DNA of 64,000 nt from Candidatus Kaftiobacterium secundum (GCA_031459765.1 JAVKHY010000002.1:257350-321349); one strand, 5' to 3'; shown: positions 256 to 60,860, numbered from the stretch's first letter. Notes: generated from the letters alone by a model not told the origin. Program-made: numbers and translations.

Positions 256-325
256 CGCCGACCGCCGGCCCGGACTCGGGCCGGCGGTTTCCTTTCCCCG
301 CGACCGACTTCAGGAGGGGAGAGCG

Positions 326-11634: not shown

Positions 11635-15225
<3,591 letters not shown>

Positions 15226-35137: not shown

Positions 35138-35536
35138 CTAGTTCACCGGCTTCAGCTGTGTCGTCGTGATACAGGTACGGTCCTTAGGAAAGGTGCTGAT
35201 GGTGTCCGTGCCCCGCAGAGACCCGAAGGCGAAGGTCACCACGTAGGTCTTGTTGGCGGGCAGCCACCACTCGATGAATCCGTCGGCCCCGGTGCGCGCG
35301 AGCCCGGCGCGGTTCACGGTGCCGTCGGTGGAGCGGAGCCAGAATCGGAGGGTGGTGTTCTTCAACTCGGCCTGGCAGGAGCCCTTGACGTGATAGGTGC
35401 AGGGATGTGTCGTCGTGATGTATGGGGCGACGGCCACATAGAATTCCTGCCCGGCCGTGGCCGGGACGGCGGGAAGAACGGTCACCAGCAGCAGACTCAG
35501 CGCTGCGGTCAACGCCAGACGGGTCATCGAAGGCAC
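35138..35536 (-). CDS. secreted hypothetical protein with Cys pair (HPCTYHVKGSC)
   Basis: Signal peptide plus ~105-aa beta-rich domain. No recognisable family. Co-directional, immediately downstream of hypE. Confidence 0.35.
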   Translation of the reverse strand: MPSMTRLALTAALSLLLVTVLPAVPATAGQEFYVAVAPYITTTHPCTYHVKGSCQAELKNTTLRFWLRSTDGTVNRAGLARTGADGFIEWWLPANKTYVVTFAFGSLRGTDTISTFPKDRTCITTTQLKPVN

Positions 35537-40678: not shown

Positions 40679-42040
40679 TCACACCGGCTCCTGTTGCACC
40701 GCAGCGGCCCGCCGGGCCCGCACCGTGGCCCAGGCCAGGCGGGCGACTAGGCGCGGGTCGACGGCCCGGAGGAAGATGCTGCGGTACGGCGCGCTGCCGG
40801 AGAACATGTCCCAGAGGACGCCGCTGAGCCGCGGGTCGCGGTCGCGGCCGGTTTGTTCCGCCGCCGTGGTATGGAGGACCGCTCCGCGGAGAAGGCGGAC
40901 GGTCTTCAGCAGCCCGGCGAGGAGGAACATCACCCGGCCGAAGCGGTTGTCCCAGGCGATGGAGCGGTAGACGGGTCCGAAGTGTCGGCGGAACGCCCGG
41001 GCCGAGATCCCATGGAACACCGCCGTCTGCGCGGCGGCCCGTGCGGTGCGGTAGGCGGCGCCGATGCCGTCCTTGTACAGCCTGGTCACACCGCAGTCCC
41101 CTACGAGGACGACCCGGTCGGCGAAGGGCCGGGCGGCCTCCCGCACGTTGATGTTGGGCCGGCAGTGGCAGACGCCTTCGTGGGACGTCCCGGGCGGCAG
41201 CCACCGGGTCACGGCCGGATGGGCGAAGAAGACCCGGATCAGCAGGTGGTCGATGTTGCGGCCGAGCAGGCAGACGGTCACGAAGTCGCCCTTGGGGATG
41301 ATGGCCGCAAACTCCAACCGGGGAATATCGAGGAGAAAGATGTGCATCGCGGCGCCGAAGATGCGCGTCACCGTTTCGAACCCGAGCCGGATCTCCGTGA
41401 TGTAGGCGCGGCTGGTTTCCGCCGGCCGGTGTCGCAGGCCGAGACCCGCGAAGAGCGGCTCGGAGGCCACGTTGACGCCGGTGGCGACGACGATGAGATC
41501 GTAGACCGTCGACGCTCCCCGCACCTGCAGCGACGGCCGTCCCCCCTGCCACCGGGCACCGGTGACGCGGGCGGGGATGACGCGGGCCCCCAGGCGCTGC
41601 GCCTCGGAGAGCAGGAAGCCGTCCAGCCCGCCCCAGCGCAGCACGCTCAGATCGCGCGGCCCGCCCCCGCGGTGGAGGGTCGCAATCCGTGCCTCACGCC
41701 GCGGGGTGCGGATTCTCACCGACCCCTCGTCGGTGTTCAGGACGTAGGCCGCGATGCCGCGCTGCACGACCGTGGCCGGGAGGTCGATCCCTTCCGCCGC
41801 CAAGCCTTGCACCAGCGCCTCGGAGACCACGCCCCCGCACATGTTGCACCCGCGAGGACCGGTCGCCGCGAAGTCTCTGGGTTCGTAGATGTCGACGGCC
41901 AGCCGGAGATTCTGCTGCTCGGCGAAACGGAGGAGGAAATACGCAGACAACGATCCGGCGGGGCCGCCCCCGATAACGGCGACGCGGCTCCCGTCCTGCA
42001 GGCGCATCGGCCCCCGGGCCGGAGGGGCTCTGGCGATCAT
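40679..42040 (-). CDS. FAD-dependent oxidoreductase (geranylgeranyl-reductase-like flavoprotein) with CNMCGG motif
   Basis: Rossmann VAVIGGGPAGS near the N-terminus; GDxG-like VLVGDCGV region. ATG at 42040 has RBS GGGGAGGA. Last gene of the cupredoxin/NrfCD block. Confidence 0.6.
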   Translation of the reverse strand: MIARAPPARGPMRLQDGSRVAVIGGGPAGSLSAYFLLRFAEQQNLRLAVDIYEPRDFAATGPRGCNMCGGVVSEALVQGLAAEGIDLPATVVQRGIAAYVLNTDEGSVRIRTPRREARIATLHRGGGPRDLSVLRWGGLDGFLLSEAQRLGARVIPARVTGARWQGGRPSLQVRGASTVYDLIVVATGVNVASEPLFAGLGLRHRPAETSRAYITEIRLGFETVTRIFGAAMHIFLLDIPRLEFAAIIPKGDFVTVCLLGRNIDHLLIRVFFAHPAVTRWLPPGTSHEGVCHCRPNINVREAARPFADRVVLVGDCGVTRLYKDGIGAAYRTARAAAQTAVFHGISARAFRRHFGPVYRSIAWDNRFGRVMFLLAGLLKTVRLLRGAVLHTTAAEQTGRDRDPRLSGVLWDMFSGSAPYRSIFLRAVDPRLVARLAWATVRARRAAAVQQEPV

Positions 42041-42131: not shown

Positions 42132-42665
42132 CTACGACGCCCGGCGAATGCCCATGAGCAATGCGACCAGGTAGGCGTACGTCGTCCAGATTCCGCCGAG
42201 CAGCACAGCAACGACCAGAATCTGGACAGGGGGATAGGGACTGATGAACCCCGGTTGCGGGCTCATCCCGCGAAGCACATCCAGTCCGGGGCGTCGCTGC
42301 GGATCCCGCACTCTGGGCGAGAGGAGCTGGAGGCCGGCCTGGAGGGTCGCGCTCTCGCCGGCGACCGCCCGCACCTCGGTGTAGCGCGGCGGGTCGTTCA
42401 GCGTGACGGACGCCGTCCCGGCGGCGTCCGCCTCCACCTCTGCCAGCTCCAGCCATCCGAAGGCCGTCCGGGCCAGGAACGTCACCGCCGTCCCGCCGGC
42501 GGGCGCTCCCGCGTCGTCCTGCACGGTAGCCACGACGCGCGTCGAGCCGTCGGCGCGGACCTCCTTGAGCAGTGAGATCCTGGCCGGCTCCGCCCCGTCC
42601 GCGGCGGAGGCGCCGCCCGCGACGAGCAACAGGCCCAGGACCGCGAGGCTACGGAACAGGCGCAT
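42132..42665 (-). CDS. exported protein with C-terminal membrane anchor, unknown function
   Basis: Signal peptide, Ala/Gly-rich ~120-aa domain, terminal TM (ILVVAVLLGGIWTTYAYLVALLMGI). Overlaps the 3' end of the nrfD-like gene by 17 nt. Confidence 0.35.
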   Translation of the reverse strand: MRLFRSLAVLGLLLVAGGASAADGAEPARISLLKEVRADGSTRVVATVQDDAGAPAGGTAVTFLARTAFGWLELAEVEADAAGTASVTLNDPPRYTEVRAVAGESATLQAGLQLLSPRVRDPQRRPGLDVLRGMSPQPGFISPYPPVQILVVAVLLGGIWTTYAYLVALLMGIRRAS

Positions 42666-44217
42666 GCGCCACCTCTCCGGCACTGGCCTCAGTCCCCCGC
42701 TCTTCCCGCGTCTCCCAGATCGAGACGATCGGGAACAGTTTGCTGAACAGGATGTAAATGAGTGCAAAGCCCGCCAGGGCCGCCGCCGTGATCGACCACT
42801 CCACCCACGTCGGCCGGTAGACCGCCCAGCCCACTGGAGCACGCCGGATCGGTAAGAACGGATACTGAAGGGTGGGCACGATGATGACGAAGCGCTTCAG
42901 CCAGGCTCCGACGTTGACCAGGAGCGAGGCCACGACCGCGGCCGCGATCGGGCGCGCTCGGAAAAACGGCAGCAGCGCGACAAAGAGCCAGATGCCAGCG
43001 GCGGTCAACACCCACGGCAGCAGCGCACGCAGGGCGGCGACGTCGCCCAGGGCCGCGGCGGGCGACCCCGAGGACGAGACGAAGACGCGCAGGCCGAGGG
43101 TGGCGGCCAGCGCGGCCAGCGCCGGTCTGGGCTGAAGCAGGGGGGCGCTCTGCAGGCGCGGCACCCAGGAGATCGTCGGCAGTGTGAGGAGCAGCACGGG
43201 GACCAGCAGTCCGCCGATCTGTGTAAACCAGAAGATGCGCGCATAGGGCCCGCTGACCACCGCGCTCAGGTAGCCGCGCTCGTGTGTCGCCAGTTTGTAC
43301 AGCGGCGTCCAGTACTCGTTGAAGGTGAAGTAGGCGTAGATCAGGCCCAGCGCGATAAGAAGATAGCCCATCCGCTTGAAGTGGCGCACCGTAATGTAGT
43401 CCTCCAGATGGTACGCCCACCGGAAGGCGGCCATCGCGGTGATCACGGCGGCTGCGCCGCTGAACAAGGCCCCCGAGACGAAGTACGGCCCGAAGATCGT
43501 ACTGTTCCATCCCGCGCGCAGCGTCATCGCCATGATCCAGGACACCACCGTGTGCACCGAGATCGCCACGGGGATGATCAGCACCGCCAGCACGCCGATG
43601 ATCGTTTCCAACTGGTGCTTCTGCCCGGGCGTCCCGCGCCACCCTAGGGCCAGGATCGTGTACAATCGCCGCCGCCACGCCGGCCCCCGCGCATAGTGCT
43701 CCCGCAGCAGCGCGATGTCCGGGATCATGGGCACGTACAGGAACAGCGTGCTGCCGGTCAGGTACGTCGTGATCGACATGATGTCCCACAGGATGGGCGA
43801 CTGCAGCCGGCCGTGCAGGAGGAGATTCAGGATGCGGTCCGGCCGCCCCATGTCCACGAAGGGCATCAGCGCTCCCATCAGCAGCGAGGCGAAGGTAATC
43901 GCCTCGGCCATCCGCGTGATCGGCCGCCGCCACTCCGCCCCGGTGAGGCGCAGGATGGCGGACATCAGCGCACCGACGTGGCTGACGCCGATGAAAAAGA
44001 CGAAGTTGGTGATGTAGACGCCCCACATGAAATTGTCGCGCAGCCCGGTCACGCCCAGCCCGTAACGCAGCTGCACGCCGTAGGCGATGAGCCCCCAGAG
44101 GATGATGGCCACGAGCCCGCCGACCAGCGCGTAGTAGCGCGGGCCGGTCGCCTGCAGCGAGTCGAGCAGGCGCTGCTCGCGAGGTGCGAACGCCTGACGG
44201 CGGCGCCCGTCGATCAC
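42649..44217 (-). CDS. NrfD/PsrC-family polytopic membrane subunit (quinol-interacting), ~12 TM
   Basis: 522 aa with ~12 hydrophobic helices typical of NrfD/PsrC/ActC-type quinol oxidoreductase subunits. GTG start overlaps the stop of the FeS gene (GTGA). Confidence 0.7.
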   Translation of the reverse strand: MIDGRRRQAFAPREQRLLDSLQATGPRYYALVGGLVAIILWGLIAYGVQLRYGLGVTGLRDNFMWGVYITNFVFFIGVSHVGALMSAILRLTGAEWRRPITRMAEAITFASLLMGALMPFVDMGRPDRILNLLLHGRLQSPILWDIMSITTYLTGSTLFLYVPMIPDIALLREHYARGPAWRRRLYTILALGWRGTPGQKHQLETIIGVLAVLIIPVAISVHTVVSWIMAMTLRAGWNSTIFGPYFVSGALFSGAAAVITAMAAFRWAYHLEDYITVRHFKRMGYLLIALGLIYAYFTFNEYWTPLYKLATHERGYLSAVVSGPYARIFWFTQIGGLLVPVLLLTLPTISWVPRLQSAPLLQPRPALAALAATLGLRVFVSSSGSPAAALGDVAALRALLPWVLTAAGIWLFVALLPFFRARPIAAAVVASLLVNVGAWLKRFVIIVPTLQYPFLPIRRAPVGWAVYRPTWVEWSITAAALAGFALIYILFSKLFPIVSIWETREERGTEASAGEVAHAPVP

Positions 44218-45146
44218 GGGTGGACCCCCCTGGTCGCCGGCTGCGGCTCATCCGGCGGCGCCGGATAGACCCGCTTGCGCGGCGGCAGGTAGTATACGCG
44301 CGGCTCGGTGCCCAGCTCTTCCAGGAACCGATAACCGGCGTTCTGGCGGATCAGCTCGGAAAACCGCACCGTCTCCCCCTGGGAGTTGGTTACGGCATCC
44401 TCCTCCTGGTCGCCGAAGTAGATGGCGCCCATCGGACAGGCCGCCACACAGGCCGGCAGCCTTCCCTCTTTGACGAGCCCCGGACAGAAGATGCACTTCT
44501 CGGTGGTGCCCTTGCGGTGGCGTTGGTTCCATTCGTCGGAGTACGGGAGGCTCTGCTGCGCCTCGGTCTCGGGCGGCTGGACCCAGTTGAAACTCCGTGC
44601 CCCGTACGGACAGGCGGCGATGCAGAAGCGGCAGCCGATGCAGCGCGAGGTGTCCTGCATCACGATCCCGTCCTCGCGCTTCCAGGCCGCGCTGACCGGA
44701 CAGACCTTGACGCACGGCGCGTTGTCGCACTGCATGCAGGGCCGGGGAAACCAGTACGGGGCGGCGACCTCATTGTCCCGCAGCTCGTAGACGCGGATCC
44801 ACTCCTGCCCGGCGGGGGTGAAGTGCATCCCCTGGCAGGCACGGGTGCACTCCCGGCACCCGTCGCACCTGGCGAGGTCGATAACCATCACCCACCGCCG
44901 CCCCGGGATGCCCGGCCCCGTGGGCTGCGGGGGCGATGCGGCGTAGGCCACCGCTGCCGCCCCGGCCCCGCCGGTCAGACCGTTCAGCTCGACCAGCGTG
45001 CGGTCCACCGTGGGCGCGGCGACGAGCGCGGGCACCGGCGACCTTCGGCCAAGGGGCAGGCGGCGGAGGAAGCGGCCGCCGCCCAGCGGGACGAGGGTCG
45101 CGGCGCCCGCCGCCAGCGTCCGCAGGAAGGTCCGCCGGGTGAGCAT
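44214..45146 (-). CDS. TAT-exported 4Fe-4S cluster protein, NrfC/PsrB/ActB-like
   Basis: Twin-arginine signal MLTRRTFLRTLAAGAATLVP. Four ferredoxin-type Cys motifs (CDGCRECTRAC, CMQCDNAPC, CIGCRFCIAACP, CIFCPG...CVAACP). No CxxCH. Confidence 0.75.
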   Translation of the reverse strand: MLTRRTFLRTLAAGAATLVPLGGGRFLRRLPLGRRSPVPALVAAPTVDRTLVELNGLTGGAGAAAVAYAASPPQPTGPGIPGRRWVMVIDLARCDGCRECTRACQGMHFTPAGQEWIRVYELRDNEVAAPYWFPRPCMQCDNAPCVKVCPVSAAWKREDGIVMQDTSRCIGCRFCIAACPYGARSFNWVQPPETEAQQSLPYSDEWNQRHRKGTTEKCIFCPGLVKEGRLPACVAACPMGAIYFGDQEEDAVTNSQGETVRFSELIRQNAGYRFLEELGTEPRVYYLPPRKRVYPAPPDEPQPATRGVHP

Positions 45147-45150
45147 GGGC

Positions 45151-45600
45151 TCACCGGCCGGGCAGGACGACGAACTGCCCGATCTGATCGGGATGATCCC
45201 GGGCGCATCCGGCCAGAGTGCACGCATAGTGGTAGATGCCGGGCCGGGCGGCCACAAACCGCAGCGTAACGGTCTCCCCCGGCGCGATGGTCGGAACGGC
45301 GACGTTCAACGCCCCCAGACCGAAGCCGTGGGAATCCTCCTCGTCGGTGTTGGTGACCCGCAGGATGACGGTGTCGCCGGCGTTGACGACAATCACATCG
45401 GGTATCCAGTGGTGGACTTTCCGCTCGCCCGCCTCGAAGGAGTGCAGGTAGAGGCCGACCTGCCGGACCTCGGGCGTGACCGGCGCCGTGGCCGAGACCG
45501 GAGGCACGTAAATCTGGAAGACGACATACGCGCCCCCGATGGCCAGCAGCGCGGCGAGCAGGACCGCCCCGAAGATCGTCCATCCGCCGCTATTCATCAC
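45151..45600 (-). CDS. membrane-anchored CuA-like cupredoxin (paralog A; axial Gln variant)
   Basis: N-terminal TM, cupredoxin strands (IPDVIVVNAGDTVILRVTN), upstream His (SHGF), then C-x4-C-x3-H-x2-Q (CTLAGCARDHPDQ). Confidence 0.5.
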   Translation of the reverse strand: MMNSGGWTIFGAVLLAALLAIGGAYVVFQIYVPPVSATAPVTPEVRQVGLYLHSFEAGERKVHHWIPDVIVVNAGDTVILRVTNTDEEDSHGFGLGALNVAVPTIAPGETVTLRFVAARPGIYHYACTLAGCARDHPDQIGQFVVLPGR

Positions 45601-46073
45601 TTCACCACGACCACGCCCTTCATGCCCTGCTCGTAGTGGCCTTCCACCATGCAGCCCATCTCAAAGGTGCCGGTGCGCCTGGGGGTGAACGTCAGCTCGG
45701 CCGACCGGCCGGGGCCGACCTCCACCTCGAAGATCTCCTCCCCTTCGACGGCAATGCCGCCACCTTCCACCTCGACCTCAACCCCCTTGAAGTACGAGTG
45801 CTCCTCCGCCCAGGCGTGCATCTCGCTCTCGTCCATCTTGCCCGCGGGCGTGTCGTAAACCATGAACTCGTGCTTGACCTTGCCCTTGTTGAGGAGCGTA
45901 ATCTGCGTCTTGGTCCCGGCCTGCAGCGTGACCCTGGCGGGAGTGAAGCTCATCTCGCGCAGGGTGATGGTCAGCTTCTGCGCCTTCGCCGCGCCCAGCG
46001 CGCTGCCCACCGGCAGCGTCGCCAGAAGCACGGTCACCGCCAGGAGACCCGTCCACCACCGCATCGTCCTCAC
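45597..46073 (-). CDS. secreted type-1 cupredoxin (paralog of the gene at 30084-30482)
   Basis: Signal peptide, His (KHEF), then C-x4-H-x4-M (CMVEGHYEQGM). C-terminal region aligns with the nosZ-adjacent cupredoxin (TFEMGCMVEGHYEQGMKGVVVVK vs TIFCKVAGHKEAGMHIQLVVK). Confidence 0.65.
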   Translation of the reverse strand: MRTMRWWTGLLAVTVLLATLPVGSALGAAKAQKLTITLREMSFTPARVTLQAGTKTQITLLNKGKVKHEFMVYDTPAGKMDESEMHAWAEEHSYFKGVEVEVEGGGIAVEGEEIFEVEVGPGRSAELTFTPRRTGTFEMGCMVEGHYEQGMKGVVVVK

Positions 46074-46225
46074 CTCCGCTCGTCGTCACACCACCCCCAG
46101 GGTACGATCCGGGCGGACGCCGCGACAACGCACCGGCGGGTAGTCTTGGCGGGGCCGCACCTACCCGTCCGGGTAGGCGGAGACGGGCGGGCAGAACGTT
46201 GGCCAGCTCCAAAGACGCGCCGCGG

Positions 46226-46867
46226 TCAGCCGGGATCCTCCGGCAGCAACCCCCGGCGCGCCGCGTAGGCGATGACCTCGGCGCGGCTGCGGAGGTGGAG
46301 CTTGTCCAGGATGTTCTTCATGTGGAACTTGACGGTGTTCTCCGAAATGTGCAGGGCCGCGGCCACCTCGCGGTTGCTGGCCCCCCGGCTCACGGCCTGC
46401 AGCACCTCGCGCTCCCGGTCGGTCAGCGCCTCCGGAGGTGGCGCCTGCGGCTGCTGTCCGGCGAACTCCTCGAGGATCCGCGCGGCGAGGGTGCGGGTGA
46501 TCGGCGCCTCCCCGCGCTCCACCCCGCTCAACAGGTCGAAGAACTCCCCGGCCCGGAGGTTCTTGAGCAGGTAGCCCTGTGCTCCGCTCTTGATCGCTTC
46601 GAACACCATCCGGTCTTCATCGGAAACGGTGAGCATGACGATCTTGATTTGCGGGGCCTGGGCCTTGATCAGCCGCGTTGCCTCGAGGCCGCTCATGCGT
46701 GGCATGGCGATGTCCATGAGCACGACATCCGGGCGCAGGCGCAGCGCCGCCTCCACCGCCTGCAGGCCGTCGCCGGCCTCGCCCACGACCTCCACTCCCC
46801 GCGTGGCCAGCAGGCTGCGCACCCCGTCGCGGAAGAGGGCGTGATCGTCAACCAGCAGCACGCGCAC
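46226..46867 (-). CDS. NarL/FixJ-family response regulator (REC + LuxR HTH)
   Basis: MRVLLVDDH...DVVLMDIAMP receiver and C-terminal LTDREREVL...NISENTVKFH LuxR-type HTH. Confidence 0.85.
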   Translation of the reverse strand: MRVLLVDDHALFRDGVRSLLATRGVEVVGEAGDGLQAVEAALRLRPDVVLMDIAMPRMSGLEATRLIKAQAPQIKIVMLTVSDEDRMVFEAIKSGAQGYLLKNLRAGEFFDLLSGVERGEAPITRTLAARILEEFAGQQPQAPPPEALTDREREVLQAVSRGASNREVAAALHISENTVKFHMKNILDKLHLRSRAEVIAYAARRGLLPEDPG

Positions 46868-48626
46868 GCCGGCCCTCCTCCATTCCCGGGAGCACCACCT
46901 CGACGACGGTGCCTCCGCCAGCTCGGACGCCGACGGTCATCGTGCCGCCGATGGCTTCCGCCCGCTCCCGCATCGTCTGCAAGCCGAACCCTGCGGTCGG
47001 GGGCGCGGCCTTCCCGCCAATCCCCACGCCGTCGTCTTCCACGGCGACCACAATCGCCCCGCCCCGCGCCGCCAGCCGGACCACCGCGTGGCGCGCTGCG
47101 GCGTGCTTGCGGACGTTGGTCAACGCCTCCTGGACGATGCGAATGAGGTGGACTTCCGTCGTGGGCGGGAATTCGACCTCGTCGATCTCGACGACGAGCC
47201 GGGTGTCGACGCCGCTGAGCTCGGTGAACCGCCGGGTGTAATCGGCCAGGACCGGAATCAGGCGGCGATCCGGCCCCGTGGTGGTGCGCAGGCTCAGGAT
47301 GGCTTCCCGCAGGTCGGCGTAGACCGAGCGCGCAGCCAGCTCCAGCTCCTCCAGGTGGGCCAGGGCCTCCGGGATCTGGCCCTGGCTCACCAGCGCATGG
47401 ACCGCCTGCACCTTGGTGTTTACGTAGCCCAGCACCTGCCCGACGCTGTCGTGCATCTCCCGGGCAATACGCTCCCGTTCCTCCACCATGGCCACGGATC
47501 GCAGGCGCTCCTGCAGACGGGCGTTCTCCTCCAGGGAGCGGAGCAGCCGGAGGCGCATCGTCTCGAAGCTCTGGCCGAGCGCGCCGAGCTCGTCCCCCCG
47601 ACGCACCTCGATGCGCTGCGCCAGATCGCCTGCGGCGATACGCTCCGCCCCCCGCTGCAGGAGCCGCAGCGGGGCCACCACCGCTCCGGTGTCGAGCCAG
47701 GCGAAGAGCAGGGCCACGGCGAGCACGACGACCTCAAAGAGGAGGACGCGGTCGCGCAGACGCCAGAGCGGGCCAAAGGTTTCGGCCTCACTCTGTCCGA
47801 TCCCAAGCCCCCACGGCGCCGACGCCAGGGGCGCAAAGGCCATGAGGTGAAGGGGACTGCGGCCCTTCGGCTCACGCCGCTCCTCGCTCGCCCCCACCAG
47901 CGGCCGGCCCTCGGCGATCAAGCGGGCAAAAAAGTCGGGATGCTCGTTCCGGGAGAACACCTCATCAGGGTCGGTCCCGGCAAGTACGATGCCGTCCGGG
48001 CCCACGAGGACGGCATGGCCGGTTTCCCCGATGGGCAATCCCCTGATAAACGTGAACAGCGCCGGTGTGGTGAGGTCGATCGCCCCGAGCAATGCTCCGG
48101 CGATCCACTGCGGACCGTCGAAGACTGGCACGGCGAAGAAGACCACAGGCCTGCCGTCGGCCCGCCGGATGAGGCTGCTCGCCTGCGGCCGGCCCGAAGT
48201 CAGCACCTGCTGCAGCAGGGGGGAGCGCGCCAGAGGCTCGAACAGGACCGCCTCCTCCGGTTCGGCGACCCGGATCTTCGATCCTCGATCGAGGTAGGCG
48301 ATCCCCCCGGAGAACAGCGGCATCTGCAGGTAGGAGACCGCCAGCTCGCGCCGGAGGGCCCGGAAGTCGGACCGCGCCAGGTGCGGGCTGAGGCGCGCGC
48401 TCAACCCGTTCAGGGACCGCCAGCCCTGGGCCAGTTCCTGATCGATGTGTTCGGCGGTGGTGCGCGCCATGACCAGGCGTTCGGCCAGCACCCGGTCGGT
48501 CGCGGCCCGCACCATCGCCAGACCCATCACCCCCAGCGGGGCGGTGGCGACGAGCACCCCCAGCGCCACGAGGAGCATGATGCGGTTGCGCAATCCCACC
48601 GCGACCACCACCCTCGCAGACATCAT
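46848..48626 (-). CDS. sensor histidine kinase (periplasmic Cache-like domain, HAMP, HisKA_3, HATPase)
   Basis: Two TM segments flanking a ~270-aa periplasmic domain. HAMP (IAAGDLAQRIEV), HisKA_3 H-box (REMHDSVGQ), and a C-terminal HATPase region with the conserved catalytic Asn and Gly-rich motifs. 20-nt overlap with the response regulator. Confidence 0.8.
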   Translation of the reverse strand: MMSARVVVAVGLRNRIMLLVALGVLVATAPLGVMGLAMVRAATDRVLAERLVMARTTAEHIDQELAQGWRSLNGLSARLSPHLARSDFRALRRELAVSYLQMPLFSGGIAYLDRGSKIRVAEPEEAVLFEPLARSPLLQQVLTSGRPQASSLIRRADGRPVVFFAVPVFDGPQWIAGALLGAIDLTTPALFTFIRGLPIGETGHAVLVGPDGIVLAGTDPDEVFSRNEHPDFFARLIAEGRPLVGASEERREPKGRSPLHLMAFAPLASAPWGLGIGQSEAETFGPLWRLRDRVLLFEVVVLAVALLFAWLDTGAVVAPLRLLQRGAERIAAGDLAQRIEVRRGDELGALGQSFETMRLRLLRSLEENARLQERLRSVAMVEERERIAREMHDSVGQVLGYVNTKVQAVHALVSQGQIPEALAHLEELELAARSVYADLREAILSLRTTTGPDRRLIPVLADYTRRFTELSGVDTRLVVEIDEVEFPPTTEVHLIRIVQEALTNVRKHAAARHAVVRLAARGGAIVVAVEDDGVGIGGKAAPPTAGFGLQTMRERAEAIGGTMTVGVRAGGGTVVEVVLPGMEEGRRARAAG

Positions 48627-49076
48627 CTAGCGCGGCGGCGCGTCGAGGACGACCAGGTGCCCGATCATTCGCTCATGGTCCGGCGAGCAGGACCCGGCGG
48701 CCGGGTCGTAGGGCAGATAGCACCGGTATTCGAAGATCCCCGCGCGGTCCGCGCGGAAGGTCACCTCATCCACGTCCCCGCCGGCCAGGACCTTCGTGCG
48801 GACGTTGAGGCCCCTGAACTCGATGGCGTGGCTGAACAGAGACTGGTTCATCACGCGCAGGCGGACCGTGTCGCCCCGGCGCACGACGAGCATCTGGGGA
48901 TCATAGAGGTGGCTGGTGGCCGGGCCGCCGATGCCCCCCTGCCCGGTGATGAGCATCGCCAGGTCGATGGTCGGGGCGCCGGAGGGGCGCCGTTCCGCCG
49001 GGCGAAGCGCGAACAGACCGACCGCGATCGCCGCCGCCGACACCATCGTCGCCGTCCACGCGACCATCTTGCTCAT
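48627..49076 (-). CDS. membrane-anchored CuA-like cupredoxin (paralog B)
   Basis: N-terminal TM; upstream His (SHAIEF); C-x10-C-x3-H-x2-M (CYLPYDPAAGSCSPDHERM), i.e. the CuA ligand set with an expanded Cys-Cys loop. Abuts the histidine kinase start with zero gap. Confidence 0.5.
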   Translation of the reverse strand: MSKMVAWTATMVSAAAIAVGLFALRPAERRPSGAPTIDLAMLITGQGGIGGPATSHLYDPQMLVVRRGDTVRLRVMNQSLFSHAIEFRGLNVRTKVLAGGDVDEVTFRADRAGIFEYRCYLPYDPAAGSCSPDHERMIGHLVVLDAPPR

Positions 49077-49080
49077 CCCG

Positions 49081-49518
49081 TCACTCCGTGACGAGGAGAT
49101 AGCCGCGCATCAGATCGTGATCGGGCGTGCAGTCGCCCGTGGCGGGGTTGTGGGGCAGTGCGCACCGGAAGAGAAACACCCCCGTCCGGTCGGCGACGAA
49201 ACGCAGAGACCGGCTGCTGCCCGGCCTGAGTTTCCCGGTCCTGAGGTTGTACCCCGTCAGTTCGAAGTCGTGGTTGTACCTGTCGGGGTTGCCGACGGCG
49301 AGATCGACGGTGTCCCCGCGGCGCACGACGAGCATCGTCGGGTACCAGCGGTGGGCGGCCACCCCCTGCCCCGAGAAGGTGGCGACAACCATGGACAGGG
49401 TCAGCGTGGCGGGGGGCCGGGGGCCGACCGCCTCGGGCGGACCCTGTCCCCGTCCGGCCAGGGCCGCCACACTGACGACCAGCGCCAGGACGCTCAGGAC
49501 GAGGGCGATCCGCTCCAT
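49081..49518 (-). CDS. membrane-anchored CuA-like cupredoxin (paralog C)
   Basis: Collinear with paralog B (MLVVRRGDTVxL...FRxDRxG(I/V)F(E/L)(Y/F)RC.LP..PA.G.C.PDH..M). First gene of the block. Confidence 0.5.
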   Translation of the reverse strand: MERIALVLSVLALVVSVAALAGRGQGPPEAVGPRPPATLTLSMVVATFSGQGVAAHRWYPTMLVVRRGDTVDLAVGNPDRYNHDFELTGYNLRTGKLRPGSSRSLRFVADRTGVFLFRCALPHNPATGDCTPDHDLMRGYLLVTE

Positions 49519-49768
49519 GGACGCCGCCTCCCCTTGTAGGAATTACTCTACGCGCGCTCTGCGCGCATCGACTATAGGGTGTGGAACGGATTCGACGCCC
49601 GGCCGGAGCCCGAGGACAAGATGCCGCCGCAGCCCGATAGCCCCCGGATCATCCGGACCATAGGCTGGCAGTGGACCAAGGAAACGCAGCGTTCAGAGTG
49701 AACACGCTGTGTACAGGGTGAACACCGCGGGCGAGACGACCGCCCGGACCCAAAGGAGGGGAGCACAA

Positions 49769-50356
49769 ATGGCGAAGGTAGAGTCGGCGCTGGTCGAGGT
49801 CTACAGCGACCCGCCCTTCGCACGGACCCTGTTCAGCACCACCCGGTTCGCCTGGCTGTGGGCGGCCGTCCGGATCTGGCTCGGCTGGCAGTGGATCGAG
49901 GCCGCCCGGCACAAGGTCGGGGTGGAGGCCTGGACGGGCACCGGCATGGCCCTGAAGGGATTCTGGGAGCGGGCGATCCAGGTGCCGCCGCCTCCGGCAC
50001 GGCCGCCGATCGCCTTCGACTGGTACCGCACCTTCATCCAGTACCTGCTGGACACGCAGTCCTACACCTGGTTCGCCAAGCTGGTGGCCTACGGGGAGCT
50101 GGCCGTCGGCATCGCCCTCATCGTCGGCGCCTTCGTGGGCATCGCCGCCTTCTTCGGCGCCTTCATGAACTGGAACTTCATGATGGCGGGAACGGCCAGC
50201 ACCAACCCGCTGCTCTTCACGGCCGCGATGCTGCTGATCCTGTCCTGGAAGGTCGCGGGGCACTACGGGCTCGACCGGGTGCTCCTGCCGCTCCTGGGCA
50301 CGCCCTGGAGGCCGGGGAAGGCGTTCATCGGTCGCACCGCTTCCGCCGCATCCTAG
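49769..50356 (+). CDS. DoxX-family membrane protein (TQO small-subunit DoxD-like)
   Basis: ATG with strong RBS AAAGGAGGGGA. ~195 aa, 4 hydrophobic helices, DoxX-like WLWAAVRIWLGWQWIEA N-terminus. Divergent from the cupredoxin block. Confidence 0.45.
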   Translation: MAKVESALVEVYSDPPFARTLFSTTRFAWLWAAVRIWLGWQWIEAARHKVGVEAWTGTGMALKGFWERAIQVPPPPARPPIAFDWYRTFIQYLLDTQSYTWFAKLVAYGELAVGIALIVGAFVGIAAFFGAFMNWNFMMAGTASTNPLLFTAAMLLILSWKVAGHYGLDRVLLPLLGTPWRPGKAFIGRTASAAS

Positions 50357-56150: not shown

Positions 56151-56774
56151 ATGGCAGACGTCTCTGGCATCATCCTGGCCGGGGGACGGAGCCGCCGCCT
56201 GGGCCGGGACAAGCGCGACGTCATCGTGGGCGGCGTGGCGCTGCTGGATCGGGCCGTAGCCCTGTGCGCGCCGCTCGTCGACGGGCTCCTGATCGTGGCC
56301 CGCGAGGCCGGTCCGCCCCGCCGCGGCGTCCCCGTCGTCGCCGACGAGATATCCGATCGCGGGCCGATGGCCGGCGTGCTGACCGGCCTGCGCCGCAGCC
56401 GGCACCCCAGGATGCTGGTCATCCCGGTGGACATGCCGCTGCTGACGGCGGAGTTTCTGCGCTTTCTGATCCGGATCGCCCCCGAGGCCGAGATCACCGT
56501 CCCCAGGTGGGAGCGGGGGATCGAACCGCTCGTCGCGGTCTACACGCGGTCCTGTCTCGGCCCGCTCGCCGACGCCCTGGCCCGCGGCGCGACCGCCCTG
56601 CACGCCTTCATCCAGTCCGCGGGCCGCTCCGTGCGGTTCGTGGACGCCTCGGAGATCGCACCCTTCGGCCGGCCGGAACGGCTGTTCTTCAACATCAACA
56701 CGGCGGAGGAGGTCGCCGCGGCGGAGGCGATGCTGGCGGAGGAGATCAGGCCTTCGCGATCTGCACCGCCGTGA
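56151..56774 (+). CDS. mobA: molybdenum-cofactor guanylyltransferase
   Basis: N-terminal GIILAGGRSRRLG..DK motif, ~207 aa. Confidence 0.75.
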   Translation: MADVSGIILAGGRSRRLGRDKRDVIVGGVALLDRAVALCAPLVDGLLIVAREAGPPRRGVPVVADEISDRGPMAGVLTGLRRSRHPRMLVIPVDMPLLTAEFLRFLIRIAPEAEITVPRWERGIEPLVAVYTRSCLGPLADALARGATALHAFIQSAGRSVRFVDASEIAPFGRPERLFFNINTAEEVAAAEAMLAEEIRPSRSAPP

Positions 56775-59409
56775 CTTTGTACTCCGGGGTGGCGGTCTGG
56801 GGATCGCGGTGCGGGCCGGTGACGCGGTTCAGGAAGATCTCCGCCGTGTGAAAGGTGGCGAAGACCACACCCGGTCCGACGGCCGTGGTCAGGCGTACGG
56901 GGAGGACGGCGGCGCCGTAGCGGCTGCGGACCGCGGCCCGCTCGCCGTCCCGCAGCCCCAGCGCCCGGGCGTCCTCCGGGTGGAGATCCAGCACGTCGGA
57001 GGGACGCAGCTCGCTGTTGGCCGTACGGGCGGTCATCGTGCCGGCGTTGAATTGATAGAGATTCCGGCCGGTGATCAGCACAAAGGGGAACTCCGCGCTC
57101 GGCGCTTCGGGGGTCGGCCGGTACGCGATGCGGCGCAGCGTCGCCCGCGCCCCGATCGGGAAACCCCGGCCGTGGAGCAGGGGCGTGCCGGGATGGTCCT
57201 CCGAAGGGCACGGCCACTGCAACCCGCCCTGCTCCAGCCGGGCAAAGGAGATGCCGGCGCCGGCGGGCCAGACCCTGCGGATCTCATTCCAGATCTCCTC
57301 GGCGGACCGAAAGGCAAAGTGCTCCCCCTTCCCCATCGCCGCGGCCACGGCGCAGAGGATCTGCCAGTCGGGCCGGGACTGGCCGACCGGCGGCAGCGCC
57401 TGCCGGATCCGCTGCACGCGCCGTTCCGAGTTCATGAACGTGCCGTCCTTCTCGAACGACGAGGCGCAGGGGAAGAAGACCGTGCCGTACCGGCGGGCCG
57501 TCTCCTGGAGGAAAAGGTCCTGGACGATGACCAGGTCCATCGCGGCGAAGGCCTGCTCCGTCGTCCCGGCGTCGGGATTGGTGAGGAGGACGTCCCAGCC
57601 GATGACCCACAGCGCCCGGAACGCGCCGGCCCGGGCGGCGTCCAGCATCTGCATCGCGTTCAGGCCTCCGGCCGCGGGGATCGGCGCCCCCCAGACCTGC
57701 TCGAACAGCGCCCGGCCGTCCGCGACCGGCACGAACCCGGTCAGGTTGTCCGGCTCGCAGCCCATATGGGCCGCGCCCTGCACGTTGTTCTGCCCCCGCA
57801 GCGGATTGATCCCCGTGCCGGGCCGGCCGACGTTGCCGGTGAGCAGGGCCAGATTCGCCAGGCACATCACACCCTCCGTGCCCTGCGTGTGCTCGGTGAC
57901 GCCCAGCCCGTGAAACATGAGCGACGGCTTCTCGGTCGCATACAGGCGCGCGGCGTCCCGGATGGACCGCGCCTCGACGCCGCACAGGTCCGCCACCCGC
58001 TCCGGCGCGTAGGTCCGGATGAACTCCCGGTAGGCCTCCACGCCGTCGGCCCGCAGCGCCAGGAAGGCCTCGTCGGCCAGCCCCTCTTCCAGGACGGCGG
58101 CGGCCATGGCGTTGAGCAGCGGCACGTTCGTGCCCGGCCGCAGCTGCAGGTGGTAATCGGCGTAGTCGGCCAGCTCGATCCGGCGCGGGTCGATCACGAT
58201 CAGCCGGGCGCCGCGCAACACGGCCTGCTTGATGCGCGCGCCCACGATGGGGTGGTTCTCGGTGGCGTTGGTCCCGCAGAGCAGGATCGTTCGGGCGCGC
58301 TCAATGTCGTCGAAGGAGGAGGTGGCCGCCCCCGTGCCCAGCATCGCCCGGAGGGCCGCGGCGCTGGGCGCGTGGCAGACGCGGGCGCAGCAGTCCACGT
58401 TGTTGGTCTGCAGCACGACCCGCGCGAACTTCTGGGCCAGGTAGTTCTCCTCGTTGGTGGCGCGCGCCGACCCCAGCACCCCGACGCTTGGCGGGCCGTG
58501 CTGCGCCGCGATCTCCCGCAGCCGCCGGGCGGCAAAGGAGATCGCCTCATCCCACGAGGTCTCGCGCCAGCGCGCACCCTCTCGAATCAGCGGTGTGGTG
58601 ATCCGGTCCGGCGCGTGCACGAAGGTGAAGGCATAGCGCCCTTTCACGCACAGATGCCCCTTGTTCACCGGCGCCTCCAGGACGGGTTTCACCTGGACGA
58701 GACGGCCATTCCGCGTGCCGGCGAGCAGCTCGCAGCCCACACCGCAATAGGGGCAGGTCGTCCGGGTCCACGTCGTCGGCGCGCCCTCGGCCAGCACCGA
58801 CCGGTCCTCAAGGGCCCCGGTCGGACAGGTATCGACGCAGGCCCCGCAGCTCACGCAGGTGCTGTCGGCGAAGGCGCCGCCGGAGTCGGGGACGATCTTA
58901 CTGCGGTCTCCACGCTCCCACACCTGCCAGACGAACTGCCCCTGCACCTCCTCGCAGATCCGCACACAGCGGTAGCACGAAATACACTGCGCCATGTCCA
59001 CCCGGAGATACGGGTGTGACTCGTCCACCTCAGGGGCCACAGACCCGGGCAGCTCGTCCGTGAGCCCGTAGGCTCGCAGGTAGCGATGGAACTCCTTGTC
59101 CGGATCCCGCAGGACGGCGTCCCGAGGGTACCGGCGGGCCAGCATCCGCAGGAGGCTGCGGCGCAGCGACTCCACTTCCGGCGCGTGGCTCTCGATCACC
59201 ATGCCGTCGGCGAGCGGCGTGGTGCAGGCCGTCGGGGGGCGCGGGAAGCCGTCGATCTTCACCGCGCAGAGCCGGCACCCCCCGTAGGGCGCGAGCCGGG
59301 GATCAAAACACACCTGCGGAACGTGGACGCCGATGGACTCCAGCGCAGCCAGCACGGTCAGACCGTCCCGGAACTCGCAGGTCCGACCGTTTACCGTGAC
59401 CCGAACCAC
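56746..59409 (-). CDS. fdsA: NAD-dependent formate dehydrogenase alpha subunit (FdsA type: 2Fe-2S, 4Fe-4S and Mo-bisPGD domains)
   Basis: N-terminal plant-ferredoxin-like 2Fe-2S (VTVNGRT...CRLC), ferredoxin CxxCxxC motifs, CPYCGVGC molybdopterin-domain cluster. GTG start with AAAGGA RBS. Confidence 0.85.
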   Translation of the reverse strand: MVRVTVNGRTCEFRDGLTVLAALESIGVHVPQVCFDPRLAPYGGCRLCAVKIDGFPRPPTACTTPLADGMVIESHAPEVESLRRSLLRMLARRYPRDAVLRDPDKEFHRYLRAYGLTDELPGSVAPEVDESHPYLRVDMAQCISCYRCVRICEEVQGQFVWQVWERGDRSKIVPDSGGAFADSTCVSCGACVDTCPTGALEDRSVLAEGAPTTWTRTTCPYCGVGCELLAGTRNGRLVQVKPVLEAPVNKGHLCVKGRYAFTFVHAPDRITTPLIREGARWRETSWDEAISFAARRLREIAAQHGPPSVGVLGSARATNEENYLAQKFARVVLQTNNVDCCARVCHAPSAAALRAMLGTGAATSSFDDIERARTILLCGTNATENHPIVGARIKQAVLRGARLIVIDPRRIELADYADYHLQLRPGTNVPLLNAMAAAVLEEGLADEAFLALRADGVEAYREFIRTYAPERVADLCGVEARSIRDAARLYATEKPSLMFHGLGVTEHTQGTEGVMCLANLALLTGNVGRPGTGINPLRGQNNVQGAAHMGCEPDNLTGFVPVADGRALFEQVWGAPIPAAGGLNAMQMLDAARAGAFRALWVIGWDVLLTNPDAGTTEQAFAAMDLVIVQDLFLQETARRYGTVFFPCASSFEKDGTFMNSERRVQRIRQALPPVGQSRPDWQILCAVAAAMGKGEHFAFRSAEEIWNEIRRVWPAGAGISFARLEQGGLQWPCPSEDHPGTPLLHGRGFPIGARATLRRIAYRPTPEAPSAEFPFVLITGRNLYQFNAGTMTARTANSELRPSDVLDLHPEDARALGLRDGERAAVRSRYGAAVLPVRLTTAVGPGVVFATFHTAEIFLNRVTGPHRDPQTATPEYKVTAVQIAKA

Positions 59410-60860
59410 GAGGCCACATCCTTTCCGTAGTAGCGCACGATGCTCTCGACGAACTCCCCCAGCCCGATTCCGTGGCCGCACAGGCTGGTCTGGCGCAGCG
59501 CCGGGACGATCGCCTCGAACTCGGCACGCGCCGCCGCCGGCAGGCGGCCCTGCATCCCCTCTGCCAGCATGCGCTCCACCGCGGCGGAGCCCACCCGGCA
59601 GGGCGTGCACTTGCCGCAGGACTCAAAGGCCGCGAAGCGGAAGACGTGGTGGACGAGCTCCAGGATCGAGGTGTGGCCGTCGAAGGCCACCACGCCCCCG
59701 TGCCCCACGGCCGCGCCGGCCGCCCGCAGTTCCTCGAAGCCGAAGGGCGTGTCGAACTGCTCCGGCGGGAGCACCCCGGCCAGCGGGCCGCCGATGATGA
59801 CGCCGCGGACCGGCCCGGTCGTCAACCCGCCCCCCAGTTCCTCGACGATGTGGCGCACCGAGACCCCGAACTCGATTTCGTACAGTCCCGGCCGCCGGAA
59901 CAGGGAGTTGAGCGAGACGACCTTCGTGCCGCGGCTGCGCGAGAATCCCAGGCGCCGATAGGCCTCGGGGCCGTGGCGGACGATCCAGGGGATGCTGGCC
60001 AGCGTCTCCACGTTGTTGACGAGCGTGGGACGGCCAAAGAGACCGGAGGTGGCGGGATAGGGCGGACGCGTGCGGACTTCCGGCCGTTTCCCCTCGATCG
60101 CGTTCAGCAGGGCCGTCTCTTCCCCGCAGACGTAGCTCCCCTGGCCGAGGACGAGCTCCACCTCGAAGGAGAACGGCGAGCCCAGAATCCGGTCCCCGAG
60201 CAGCCCGGCGCGCCGCGCCTCGTCGAGCGCCCTGACGAGAACTTCGCGGGCCTGAGGATATTCCTTGCGCAGGTAGATGTAGCCCCGACGCGCGCCGGTG
60301 GCGTGCCCGGCGATGGTCATCGCTTCGATCAGGCAGAAGGGATCCTCCTCGAGGATGAACCGGTCGATATAGGCGCCCGGATCGCCCTCATCGGCGTTGG
60401 CCACGACGTACTTGACGGACCCGGGCTCCGCCGCGACGGCACGCCACTTCCTTCCCGTCGGAAAGCCGGCGCCGCCGCGGCCGCGCAGGTCCGCGCGTTC
60501 CACCGCCTGCACCACCTCCACGGGAGGCTGTCGCAGCGCCGCCTCCAGCGCGGCGTAGCCGCCCCCGGCGGTGTAGGAGGCCAGCGTCGTCGCCCCGCCC
60601 TCGACGAGGCGCTCCAGGACAATCGTCTGCGGGGCCCGGGCTTCGATCCGCGGCCGCAGGCTGTCCTCGTTCGCGGCGGGGGCCAGGTAGCACTTGCCCA
60701 GGCAATAGACCCGTGCGATCCCGGAGGTGGCCGCGGCCCACCGGGCGGCATTGAGGTGCCGGGCCACGAAACAGGCCGTGCCCTGGCAGGCCCGACCGTC
60801 GAGCGAGAGGTCTCGCAGGTGATAGAAGGACTCGACGGGCCGGCGGGCGCCGCGGCTCAC
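59391..60860 (-). CDS. fdsB: formate dehydrogenase beta subunit (NuoF-like, FMN/NAD-binding) with fused NuoE-like 2Fe-2S N-terminus
   Basis: GRGGAGFPTG FMN site, 4Fe-4S CGKCTPCR motif. N-terminal CQGTAC...CLGKC thioredoxin-like 2Fe-2S region. GTG overlaps the stop of the upstream gene (GTGA). Confidence 0.8.
   Translation of the reverse strand: MSRGARRPVESFYHLRDLSLDGRACQGTACFVARHLNAARWAAATSGIARVYCLGKCYLAPAANEDSLRPRIEARAPQTIVLERLVEGGATTLASYTAGGGYAALEAALRQPPVEVVQAVERADLRGRGGAGFPTGRKWRAVAAEPGSVKYVVANADEGDPGAYIDRFILEEDPFCLIEAMTIAGHATGARRGYIYLRKEYPQAREVLVRALDEARRAGLLGDRILGSPFSFEVELVLGQGSYVCGEETALLNAIEGKRPEVRTRPPYPATSGLFGRPTLVNNVETLASIPWIVRHGPEAYRRLGFSRSRGTKVVSLNSLFRRPGLYEIEFGVSVRHIVEELGGGLTTGPVRGVIIGGPLAGVLPPEQFDTPFGFEELRAAGAAVGHGGVVAFDGHTSILELVHHVFRFAAFESCGKCTPCRVGSAAVERMLAEGMQGRLPAAARAEFEAIVPALRQTSLCGHGIGLGEFVESIVRYYGKDVASWFGSR

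Follow-up and report, generated by a model that had tools for sequence, protein, structure and literature searches.

The stretch of Candidatus Kaftiobacterium secundum analysed here (GCA_031459765.1, JAVKHY010000002.1:257350-321349; 64 kb with a G+C content of 70%, referred to as the window) carries at positions 42132-49518 a block of minus-strand genes in which a quinol dehydrogenase pair of the NrfC/NrfD type is encoded together with cupredoxins and a two-component system, and this raises the question of where electrons withdrawn from quinol are delivered. The preliminary description of this DNA had answered with a cytochrome-free, copper-only chain dedicated to reducing nitrous oxide (N2O). 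Our data give a somewhat better than even chance to another answer, i.e. its genes specify an inducible relative of alternative complex III (ACIII) that contains no haem, acts as a menaquinol:cupredoxin oxidoreductase and substitutes for complex III. The module probably serves respiration in general, with oxygen, nitrite and N2O as acceptors, and not N2O alone. The features of the block in the window are as follows:

49081-49518, minus strand: cupA, membrane-anchored CuA-like cupredoxin of 145 amino acids (aa) with an N-terminal transmembrane helix; weak Cupredoxin_1 and NCBIfam matches
48627-49076, minus strand: cupB, paralogue of cupA, 149 aa; Cupredoxin_1 32.5 bits at a cut-off of 27
46848-48626, minus strand: sensor histidine kinase, dCache_1-HAMP-HisKA_3-HATPase_c by Pfam
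46226-46867, minus strand: NarL/FixJ-type response regulator; Response_reg and GerE, best NCBIfam match NarL
46100-46200, minus strand: regulatory spacer with palindrome, half site and promoter-like hexamers, conserved upstream of the first cupredoxin gene
45597-46073, minus strand: T1cup, exported type-1 (blue) cupredoxin; Copper-bind 30.6 bits at a cut-off of 21.2
45151-45600, minus strand: cupC, CuA-like cupredoxin with a transmembrane anchor; Cupredoxin_1, with the NosZ C-terminus and CoxB as NCBIfam matches
44214-45146, minus strand: NrfC/PsrB/DsrO-like periplasmic iron-sulfur subunit, 310 aa; Fer4_11 1.2e-20, twin-arginine translocation (TAT) signal, 16 Cys
42649-44217, minus strand: ActC-like NrfD-family membrane subunit, 522 aa, 12 helices; NrfD PF03916 1.8e-27
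42132-42665, minus strand: exported Ig-like protein with a C-terminal transmembrane anchor; weak Big_1 match
40679-42040, minus strand: flavin adenine dinucleotide (FAD) protein of the geranylgeranyl-reductase family; DAO match, peripheral neighbour

Profile searches against Pfam and NCBIfam recovered all ten genes at or near the positions given in the preliminary description, and these searches together with a structural model confirmed its TAT-exported 4Fe-4S NrfC-like protein, its 12-helix NrfD-like protein and its kinase and NarL-type regulator. The start of the NrfC-like gene had been placed at 45257; the ATG at 45146 (MLTRRTFLRTL) is more likely, and the start of the Ig-like gene was corrected to 42665. 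All five of the cupredoxins described before exist, but four of them belong to the block and the fifth adjoins nosZ. Likewise, the translational coupling ascribed to all genes holds within cupA-cupB-kinase-regulator and within T1cup-cupC-NrfC-NrfD-Ig, where genes are separated by 0-4 nucleotides (nt) or overlap by 4-20 nt, but not across the 152-nt spacer between the regulator and T1cup nor for the FAD gene, which begins approximately 90-125 nt past the Ig-like gene and is not translationally coupled to the module.

The membrane subunit places the module close to ACIII. A sequence search of the PDB with the NrfD-like subunit returned only four ActC chains (E 2.7e-58 to 9.4e-56). The AlphaFold model of this subunit (predicted local distance difference test (pLDDT) score 74, predicted TM-score 0.78) shows 12 long helices, and a Foldseek search with it retrieved ActC as the top four matches (TM-score 0.75-0.80) followed by five ActF matches, with nothing else below E=1e-3. 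The subunit is specifically ActC-like and is presumed to hold the quinol site. In Roseiflexus ActC the quinol pocket contains His141, Asp171 and Asp252, and His99, His264 and Arg394 line the middle of the passage (PMC7439408). In an alignment mapped on these published residues (PMC7439408), Trp84, Ile88, Phe91 and His99 of ActC are kept as Trp65, Ile69, Phe72 and His80, and Pro138, Asp171, His246 and Arg394 as Pro119, Asp145, His222 and Arg442. The position of His141, strictly conserved in ActC, is taken by an invariant Asp (PFVDMGRP) throughout the NrfD-like family to which the window protein belongs (residue 122, codon near 43852-43854). This is reminiscent of the Glu at the equivalent position in PsrC.

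The iron-sulfur subunit has a twin-arginine signal and, as read in translation, 16 Cys residues forming four complete ferredoxin motifs. This stand-alone protein of 310 aa is closer to DsrO, ArrB and PsrB than to ActB, aligning to the C-terminal part of ActB alone (residues 776-953 of 8k9e_B). Membership of the NrfC/NrfD pair in the DsrOP or Qrc systems was considered and rejected: all scores lie under the curated NCBIfam cut-offs (DsrO 183.7 bits vs 200, DsrP 95.9 vs 350, and weak similarity to the QrcC and QrcD models), and the window holds no DsrMKJ-like genes. The block has a single NrfD-family gene, and a second, ActF-like copy was not found in it. The Ig-like protein, which had no match in PADLOC, contains neither His nor Cys and is therefore unable to carry a redox cofactor; it is encoded downstream of NrfD in all loci compared, marking it as a conserved third subunit, and it shares the C-terminal motif SPxP..ISPYP..LLGGIWxTYxY with versions that are fused to a monohaem cytochrome c.

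Neither haem c nor a catalytic subunit accompanies this core. No CxxCH, CxxxCH or CxxCK motif occurs in any block protein, and a six-frame scan of the 64 kb revealed a single CxxCH within an open reading frame of four codons and no credible reading frame with this motif, so the earlier statement that the motif is missing from the block and the nos cluster is borne out, and the rest of the window is free of it as well. Both flanks were read for a catalytic subunit directly beyond the block, and none is present: one flank contains genes for a 215-aa membrane protein, an SPW-repeat protein and an ATP-binding cassette transporter, the other the FAD protein gene and hypFCDE, and no molybdopterin or multihaem gene adjoins the block. 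The sole molybdopterin protein of the window (56746-59610) is encoded 7 kb away next to a NuoF-like gene. Our data thus support the earlier view of an NrfCD-type quinol dehydrogenase without a molybdo- or haem-containing catalytic subunit nearby, and of the cupredoxins as its only plausible periplasmic partners.

The three anchored cupredoxins share the invariant CuA ligand set His, Cys, Cys, His and Met/Gln in an unusual spacing. In cupA the ligand pattern is His83 and Cys119-x10-Cys130-x3-His134-x2-Met137, invariant in the cupA and cupB clades (alignment A1), and cupB has the same C-x10-C-x3-H-x2-M pattern; in cupC the pattern is Cys126-x4-Cys131-x3-His135-x2-Gln138, Gln replacing Met. The canonical CuA loop C-x3-C-x3-H-x2-M, absent from all three, is present in NosZ of the window and in subunit II (COX2) of the haem-copper oxidase encoded at locus L006. 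The AlphaFold2 model of cupC (pLDDT 91.4) combines a transmembrane helix with a cupredoxin architecture, and its top Foldseek matches are the CuA domain of NosZ (1fwx; root-mean-square deviation 2.9, 31% identity), subunit II of ba3 oxidase and CuA model proteins. Judged from sequence, cupA, cupB and cupC are predicted to bind copper in CuA-like centres. We propose cupC to be the electron-exit subunit; its gene lies directly upstream of NrfC in 33 loci without exception. The cupA family is small, comprising 59 cluster representatives below E=1e-10 out of 1.84 billion. Several cupA relatives (P0196, P0207, P0209, P0210, P0216 and P0222) combine the long loop C-x10-C-x3-H-x2-M with Met-/Gln-rich N-terminal extensions containing MMGGQ-type repeats, which suggests that long-loop CuA-like proteins form a wider uncharacterised family in other organisms.

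T1cup has the type-1 ligands His68, Cys141, His146 and Met151 and a signal peptide without a lipobox, and is likely the mobile carrier. The first three ligands are invariant in alignment A2, and Met151 is kept in all sequences but one, which has Gln. Among solved structures, the full-length proteins nearest to it in sequence are AcoP (5e-11) and auracyanin A (8e-9). In NCBIfam it matches CopI best, and an assignment as CopI copper-resistance cuproprotein was rejected, the score of 64.1 bits comparing with a required 280.

How firmly the cupredoxins belong to the NrfC/NrfD core was assessed by comparing neighbourhoods of homologous loci. We collected loci around NrfD homologues, 80 loci from species-representative genomes and 27 metagenome loci found through the cupC family (24 of them copper-type), and compared them by tblastn with the window proteins and with haem-copper oxidase (COX), NirK and cytochrome c queries; relatives were seen as flanks of approximately 10 kb around the module. 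The order T1cup-cupC-NrfC-NrfD-Ig is invariant in 33 copper-type loci, i.e. the window and 32 others, wherever the sequence reaches far enough, and with T1cup, cupC and NrfC adjacent in each of these 32 the arrangement is no product of chance. T1cup is mostly preceded by cupA-cupB, with pairs in L006, L008, L010, L089, L090 and many metagenome loci. The closest relative, L089 (89% NrfD identity), retains the order of the window up to the FAD gene and continues with a P-type ATPase instead of hyp genes. CxxCH was absent from the flanks of copper-type loci except for one reading frame on the opposite strand at the edge of L006, which runs off the locus.

Two of these loci directly join the module to a terminal enzyme. 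In L006 and L010 a co-directional, tightly spaced string reads kinase-regulator-ArsR-COX2-COX1-COX4-COX3-operator-cupA-cupB-T1cup-cupC-NrfC-NrfD-Ig. Because the COX2 of this string combines a canonical CuA site with the lack of a cytochrome c domain, it must receive single electrons from a periplasmic donor, and within the string only the cupredoxins qualify. Furthermore, NirK is encoded within 10 kb of the module in L008 and L107.

The NrfC-NrfD-Ig core is widespread, with more than 7600 homologues at E<1e-10, and occurs in Chloroflexota, Bacteroidota, Acidobacteriota, Gemmatimonadota, Symbiobacterium and archaea. In L001 and L015 a monohaem cytochrome c gene is found exactly at the position of the cupredoxin, in L004 and many Chloroflexota a cytochrome c domain is fused to the anchored Ig-like subunit, and in L003 such a domain is fused to NrfD. 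Cytochrome c and cupredoxin represent a carrier swap within one homologous complex. Some relatives hold both forms: in L101 (2314-8219) and L103 (8052-13948) the copper-type module is directly followed on its contig by a haem-c-type one, in L090 a further NrfC-NrfD pair lies upstream of the copper-type module (2243-4431 and 9069-11569), and L004, from the same assembly as L090 (GCA_040961345.1), is a haem-c-type module (9090-12423). Lying side by side, the two types coexist and are therefore no simple replacement for one another, and since some organisms carry both versions, the lineage as a whole is not free of cytochrome c. Nor is there ground for calling the organism cytochrome-free, given these haem-c versions in relatives and the cytochrome b and haem-copper oxidases listed in the KEGG orthology (KO) tables of its likely phylum.

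A third arrangement was seen in Terriglobia, where an exported protein of 135-149 aa is encoded directly upstream of NrfC (L033 at 7280, L035 at 8754, L041 at 8388, L044 at 7571, L056 at 8756 and L060 at 8729, all on the plus strand). It has the canonical CuA motif VHSFTI...CTVKCGxGHDDM with a weak Pfam match to Cupredoxin_1 (6.8e-4), and multihaem reading frames lie near the module in L033, L035, L041 and L044. The N-terminal domains of the anchored Ig-like proteins in archaeal and Chloroflexota loci (L022, L001) were tried as further cupredoxins and are candidates at most, as Pfam gave no support apart from a weak match in L065 (0.0079).

The module is predicted to be inducible. The spacer ahead of T1cup contains a perfect palindrome, CCTACCCG-NN-CGGGTAGG, at 46161-46176; behind it come a half site GACTACCC and hexamers of the -35-like and -10-like kind. 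The palindrome has no second exact copy in the window. Ahead of the first cupredoxin gene of the structural operon the whole arrangement is conserved in seven loci, the window included, and in L006 it lies between COX3 and cupA. The corresponding operator-bearing spacers of the relatives are:

L089: 8034-8125
L007: 7895-7990
L008: 6985-7085
L090: 7045-7135
L014: 1235-1330
L006: 7085-7175

We take the palindrome to resemble the inverted heptamers of NarL-type regulators, and it is the predicted binding site of the NarL-type regulator of the block. Response-regulator orthologues are 72-85% identical in copper-type loci, and a kinase of this type is also encoded with the module in relatives belonging to several phyla. 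No palindrome was found before the nos genes, matches with up to three mismatches occurring at chance level (9 vs 5.3 expected), and these genes have their own Rrf2 regulator; there is therefore no sign of a shared regulon. A scan for intrinsic terminators and sigma-70 promoters gave results at chance level, being uninformative in DNA of 70% G+C. The interval 49519-49720 (approximately 200 nt between cupA and a divergent gene) is well conserved with 4487-4722 of the 89%-related L089, does not contain the palindrome and is possibly a second, differently regulated promoter for cupA-cupB-kinase-regulator. The divergent gene (49709-50356) encodes the 215-aa membrane protein, which has no match in Pfam or NCBIfam.

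NrfD-like relatives of the window include Candidatus Geohabitans tengchongensis (L012), placed in the candidate phylum CSP1-3/Sysuimicrobiota, facultative anaerobes of hot springs and soils (PMC11604079). While the window is annotated as belonging to Armatimonadota, it probably belongs to CSP1-3/Sysuimicrobiota. The tables for this phylum give as many as three cox operons, record nirK and nosZ in almost every listed genome, and contain neither nirS nor nrfA nor a KO for the Rieske or cytochrome c1 subunits (PMC11604079).

These data support a model according to which quinol would give up its electrons on the periplasmic side of the ActC-like NrfD subunit and the four [4Fe-4S] clusters in the TAT-exported NrfC-like protein would lead them to the membrane-anchored cupC, which would pass them on to soluble T1cup, with cupA and cupB as possible further anchored relays. 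The reduced cupredoxin pool would then be available to those copper-entry terminal enzymes that the cell possesses, i.e. haem-copper oxidase at its CuA site, NirK, and NosZ via its own adjacent cupredoxin. The cofactor-less Ig-like protein would act as a structural subunit, which in other lineages bears the monohaem cytochrome c domain, and the dCache kinase and NarL-type regulator would switch on the structural operon through the conserved palindrome. Electron-flow direction, cupredoxin docking, energy conservation and the identity of the signal are all inferred; we propose the direction from quinol to cupredoxin because of the relationship to ActC and because of general redox potentials. With menaquinol at approximately -70 mV and cupredoxins at +150 mV or more, the transfer runs downhill. 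ACIII, moreover, is an established menaquinol:auracyanin/cytochrome c oxidoreductase (PMC7439408).

Several observations weigh against this assignment. The module family is devoid of ActA, ActB1, ActE and ActF, and the mechanisms of ACIII are therefore not simply transferable. Three ActC pocket or passage residues are changed in the window protein, i.e. His141 to Asp122, Asp252 to Ile228 and His262 (the histidine of GWH) to Asn238. The CuA-like cupredoxins have a non-canonical Cys spacing (x10 and x4), cupC has Gln in place of Met, and the structural models are metal-free. The oxidase genes share a string with the module in just 2 of approximately 14 loci with long flanks, and control by a two-component system of its own points to a conditional function and not to that of a housekeeping complex III. 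P-type ATPases or other copper-handling genes near L001, L089 and L090 and a CueP gene 7 kb from the module in the window would also fit copper stress. Finally, the KO tables of Sysuimicrobiota list two cytochrome b genes (K00412) per genome, which may provide another quinol oxidiser (PMC11604079).

The rival explanations are all less well supported than an ACIII-like menaquinol:cupredoxin oxidoreductase. The one proposed in the preliminary description, a dedicated copper-only chain from quinol to N2O that would provide clade II NosZ with electrons in place of NosGH/NosC1C2 or a bc complex, draws on the nos genes outside the conserved module:

30084-30476, minus strand: lipoprotein type-1 cupredoxin
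28081-30057, minus strand: clade II NosZ

This cluster lies 12 kb from the module in the order lipoprotein cupredoxin, Sec-type clade II NosZ, membrane protein, NosD, NosF and NosY (NosZ TIGR04246 837 bits vs a cut-off of 625; NosD 359 vs 300) and includes no nosG, nosH or cytochrome c genes; as described before, it has its own cupredoxin adjoining nosZ and is free of CxxCH. NosZ accepts electrons at its CuA site, cupredoxins are known donors to it in some bacteria, and nosZ occurs in nearly all listed Sysuimicrobiota genomes. Nevertheless, we regard such a specific chain as distinctly improbable: neither NosZ nor NosD came up within 10 kb of any homologous module in relatives, the copper-type ones included (88 loci and 27 metagenome loci), no NrfCD lies within 10 kb of nos in the three relatives L091-L093 (76-87% NosZ identity), and the nearest relative L089 has other genes downstream. 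In the window Hyp, CueP, ArsR, Nramp, Usp and Rrf2 genes intervene between module and nos, the operator of the module is missing before nos, which is under its own Rrf2 regulator, and in L006 and L010 the cassette is joined to an oxidase operon instead. The order Rrf2-cupredoxin-NosZ is kept in the nos clusters of two of the three relatives (L091 and L092). By its proximity only, NosZ with its own cupredoxin is one plausible, not a specific, acceptor of electrons from the module. A conditional branch to an acceptor encoded elsewhere, i.e. an extracellular or unknown periplasmic reductase, while a cytochrome b complex is the main quinol oxidiser for NosZ, NirK and oxidase, is unlikely as well; two copies of K00412 in nearly all Sysuimicrobiota genomes, the dedicated two-component regulation and the lack of a terminal enzyme within 10 kb of most copper-type loci agree with it, but those genomes list no KO for a Rieske or cytochrome c1 subunit (by KO annotation only), and the module is directly joined with oxidase genes in two genomes.

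The remaining two rivals change the role or the direction of the module. In a periplasmic system for copper stress or handling, cupredoxins would bind or oxidise Cu(I) like CopI and exchange electrons with the quinone pool under metal-responsive two-component control. We consider this very doubtful. The 64-bit CopI match of T1cup, the CopA-type ATPase, HMA and YHS genes flanking the Chloroflexota homologue L001, the P-type ATPases near L089 and L090, the nearby CueP gene and the module being inducible and not constitutive all point in this direction. However, the CopI score lies far under its cut-off, the insertion of T1cup is not rich in His or Met (alignment A2), the kinase, with its dCache sensor, belongs to the HisKA_3/NarL and not to the CopS/CusS type, and copper ATPases would be equally expected for the loading of cuproproteins. 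Four [4Fe-4S] clusters with an ActC-like quinol subunit are respiratory hardware, the oxidase shares an operon with the module in L006 and L010, and haem-c versions of the module exist. The least probable of all is operation in reverse, as a Qrc-type cupredoxin:quinone reductase fed by periplasmic oxidation of Fe(II), reduced sulfur or H2. QrcCD and DsrOP are reported to be NrfCD-type modules that reduce quinone or work near equilibrium (PMC6303296). The weak NCBIfam similarity to QrcC/D and DsrO/P, the hyp genes adjoining the block and a SoxE-family cupredoxin near L004 could be read in the same way. The potentials of type-1 and CuA centres usually lie far above that of menaquinone, and the reverse reaction would therefore be strongly uphill; furthermore, the nearest relatives by sequence and fold are ActC of the quinol-oxidising ACIII and not QrcD or DsrP, and the recurrent neighbours are terminal oxidase and NirK genes and not substrate oxidases.

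Downstream of the module the window continues with the FAD gene, hypF, hypC, hypD, hypE, the CueP-family gene, an ArsR-type regulator, Nramp, Usp, Rrf2 and the nos cluster. FAD orthologues (81-83% identity) follow the module in its two closest relatives only, L089 (12296-13666) and L094 (15834-17171, there past the kinase and regulator), and in none of the other copper-type loci. Enzymes of the geranylgeranyl-reductase family can saturate isoprenoid side chains as MenJ does, and a role of the FAD protein in quinone modification is conceivable. The CueP-family periplasmic copper-binding protein (35138-35527, minus strand; Pfam 3.2e-24, CueP_fam 98.8 bits vs 60) is encoded between hypE and the ArsR-type regulator and could supply copper to periplasmic cuproproteins; the synteny from CueP through ArsR-Nramp-Usp to Rrf2-cupredoxin-NosZ is also present in L091. 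On the other side, a molybdopterin oxidoreductase of 954 aa with NuoG-like N-terminal 2Fe-2S/4Fe-4S domains and a NuoF-like flavoprotein (56746-60905, minus strand) look like a cytoplasmic nicotinamide adenine dinucleotide-linked formate dehydrogenase or an enzyme of the electron-bifurcating type; they are no partner of the NrfCD module. A scan of the window with Rfam returned nothing besides a thiamine pyrophosphate riboswitch (145-259, plus strand; RF00059, 57.4 bits vs 54.3), unrelated to the module and located upstream of a cytosine/purine/thiamine-type permease and a hydroxyethylthiazole kinase.

We tentatively extend the assignment as a complex III substitute to a wider one, which we hold to be possible but not probable: the module might be the main complex III equivalent of its hot-spring lineage, in which an ActC/NrfC/Ig core of three subunits has its haem c exit replaced by a new class of anchored CuA-type cupredoxins with an expanded Cys loop, resulting in an all-copper periplasmic chain from quinol to the CuA or type-1 entry sites in haem-copper oxidase, NirK and NosZ, and the thousands of homologous NrfC-NrfD modules with cytochrome c or Ig partners in Chloroflexota, Bacteroidota, Acidobacteriota and archaea might constitute an unrecognised, widespread minimal family of quinol:periplasmic-carrier oxidoreductases. 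We found no description of an NrfC-NrfD-cupredoxin module in the open-access literature searched, and a 2021 review of NrfD-like complexes lists no such type and never mentions copper. The interest lies mainly in the substitution of copper for haem in a widespread uncharacterised respiratory module, an N2O-specific pathway being less compelling. If the assignment as a menaquinol:cupredoxin oxidoreductase is correct, quinol oxidation by ActC/NrfD proteins needs no haem subunit and the exit module can be either cytochrome c or cupredoxin, and a third route, beside bc complexes and ACIII, leads from the quinone pool to copper-entry terminal enzymes. It would account for the wiring of organisms in which all periplasmic respiratory enzymes are copper-based (NirK, NosZ, CuA oxidases). 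The module would also offer an annotation marker for respiratory competence in lineages without a called complex III, and the clade II NosZ of clusters devoid of nosGH and nosC would gain candidate physiological donors. To bioinorganic chemistry it would add a small new family of CuA-like centres whose loops are non-canonical.

Comparison with known systems suggests the module working like ACIII with auracyanin (Chloroflexus, Roseiflexus, Rhodothermus, Flavobacterium) while most of the features that define ACIII are missing from it. Both have an ActC-type membrane subunit, with most quinol-pocket and proton-path residues kept and three pocket or passage residues changed, and a periplasmic, TAT-exported iron-sulfur subunit, and in Chloroflexi ACIII also has a blue copper acceptor, T1cup being related to auracyanin A (PMC7439408). 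In contrast, the module is devoid of the pentahaem ActA, the monohaem ActE, the molybdopterin-like ActB1 domain and the second NrfD-like subunit ActF. Whereas ActB is a fusion of the B1 domain with the iron-sulfur domain B2 (approximately 950-1040 aa) and has one [3Fe-4S] cluster, the iron-sulfur subunit here stands alone and has four complete 4-Cys motifs. The NrfD-like subunit differs from ActC by an additional insertion of approximately 85 residues, forming two helices, and by Asp in place of His141, and an anchored Ig-like subunit with anchored CuA-like cupredoxins replaces the haem subunits. With NrfCD, PsrBC, DsrOP, QrcCD and MccCD the module shares a TAT-exported four-cluster ferredoxin and a cofactor-less NrfD-family protein with a quinone site on the periplasmic side (PMC8076601), but those modules serve a molybdo- or multihaem catalytic partner or cytochrome c3, here replaced by cupredoxins.

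For N2O respiration, the NosGH-NosC1C2 system of Wolinella succinogenes is reportedly a quinol dehydrogenase proposed to feed periplasmic carriers and thereby NosZ at its CuA site. NosGH belongs to the NapGH type, uses c-type cytochromes as carriers and is encoded inside the nos cluster, whereas the present module is of the ActC/NrfC type, copper-based, 12 kb away from nos and unlinked to nos in relatives. Cupredoxins replacing or supplementing cytochrome c before a CuA-type oxidase are shared with the copper-carrier chains, i.e. sulfocyanin with SoxM in Sulfolobus, halocyanin in haloarchaea and AcoP with the aa3 oxidase in Acidithiobacillus, AcoP being the closest full-length solved relative of T1cup. 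The difference lies in the enzyme that oxidises the quinol, which in the sulfocyanin, halocyanin and AcoP chains is a Rieske/cytochrome b complex and not of the NrfCD/ActC type.

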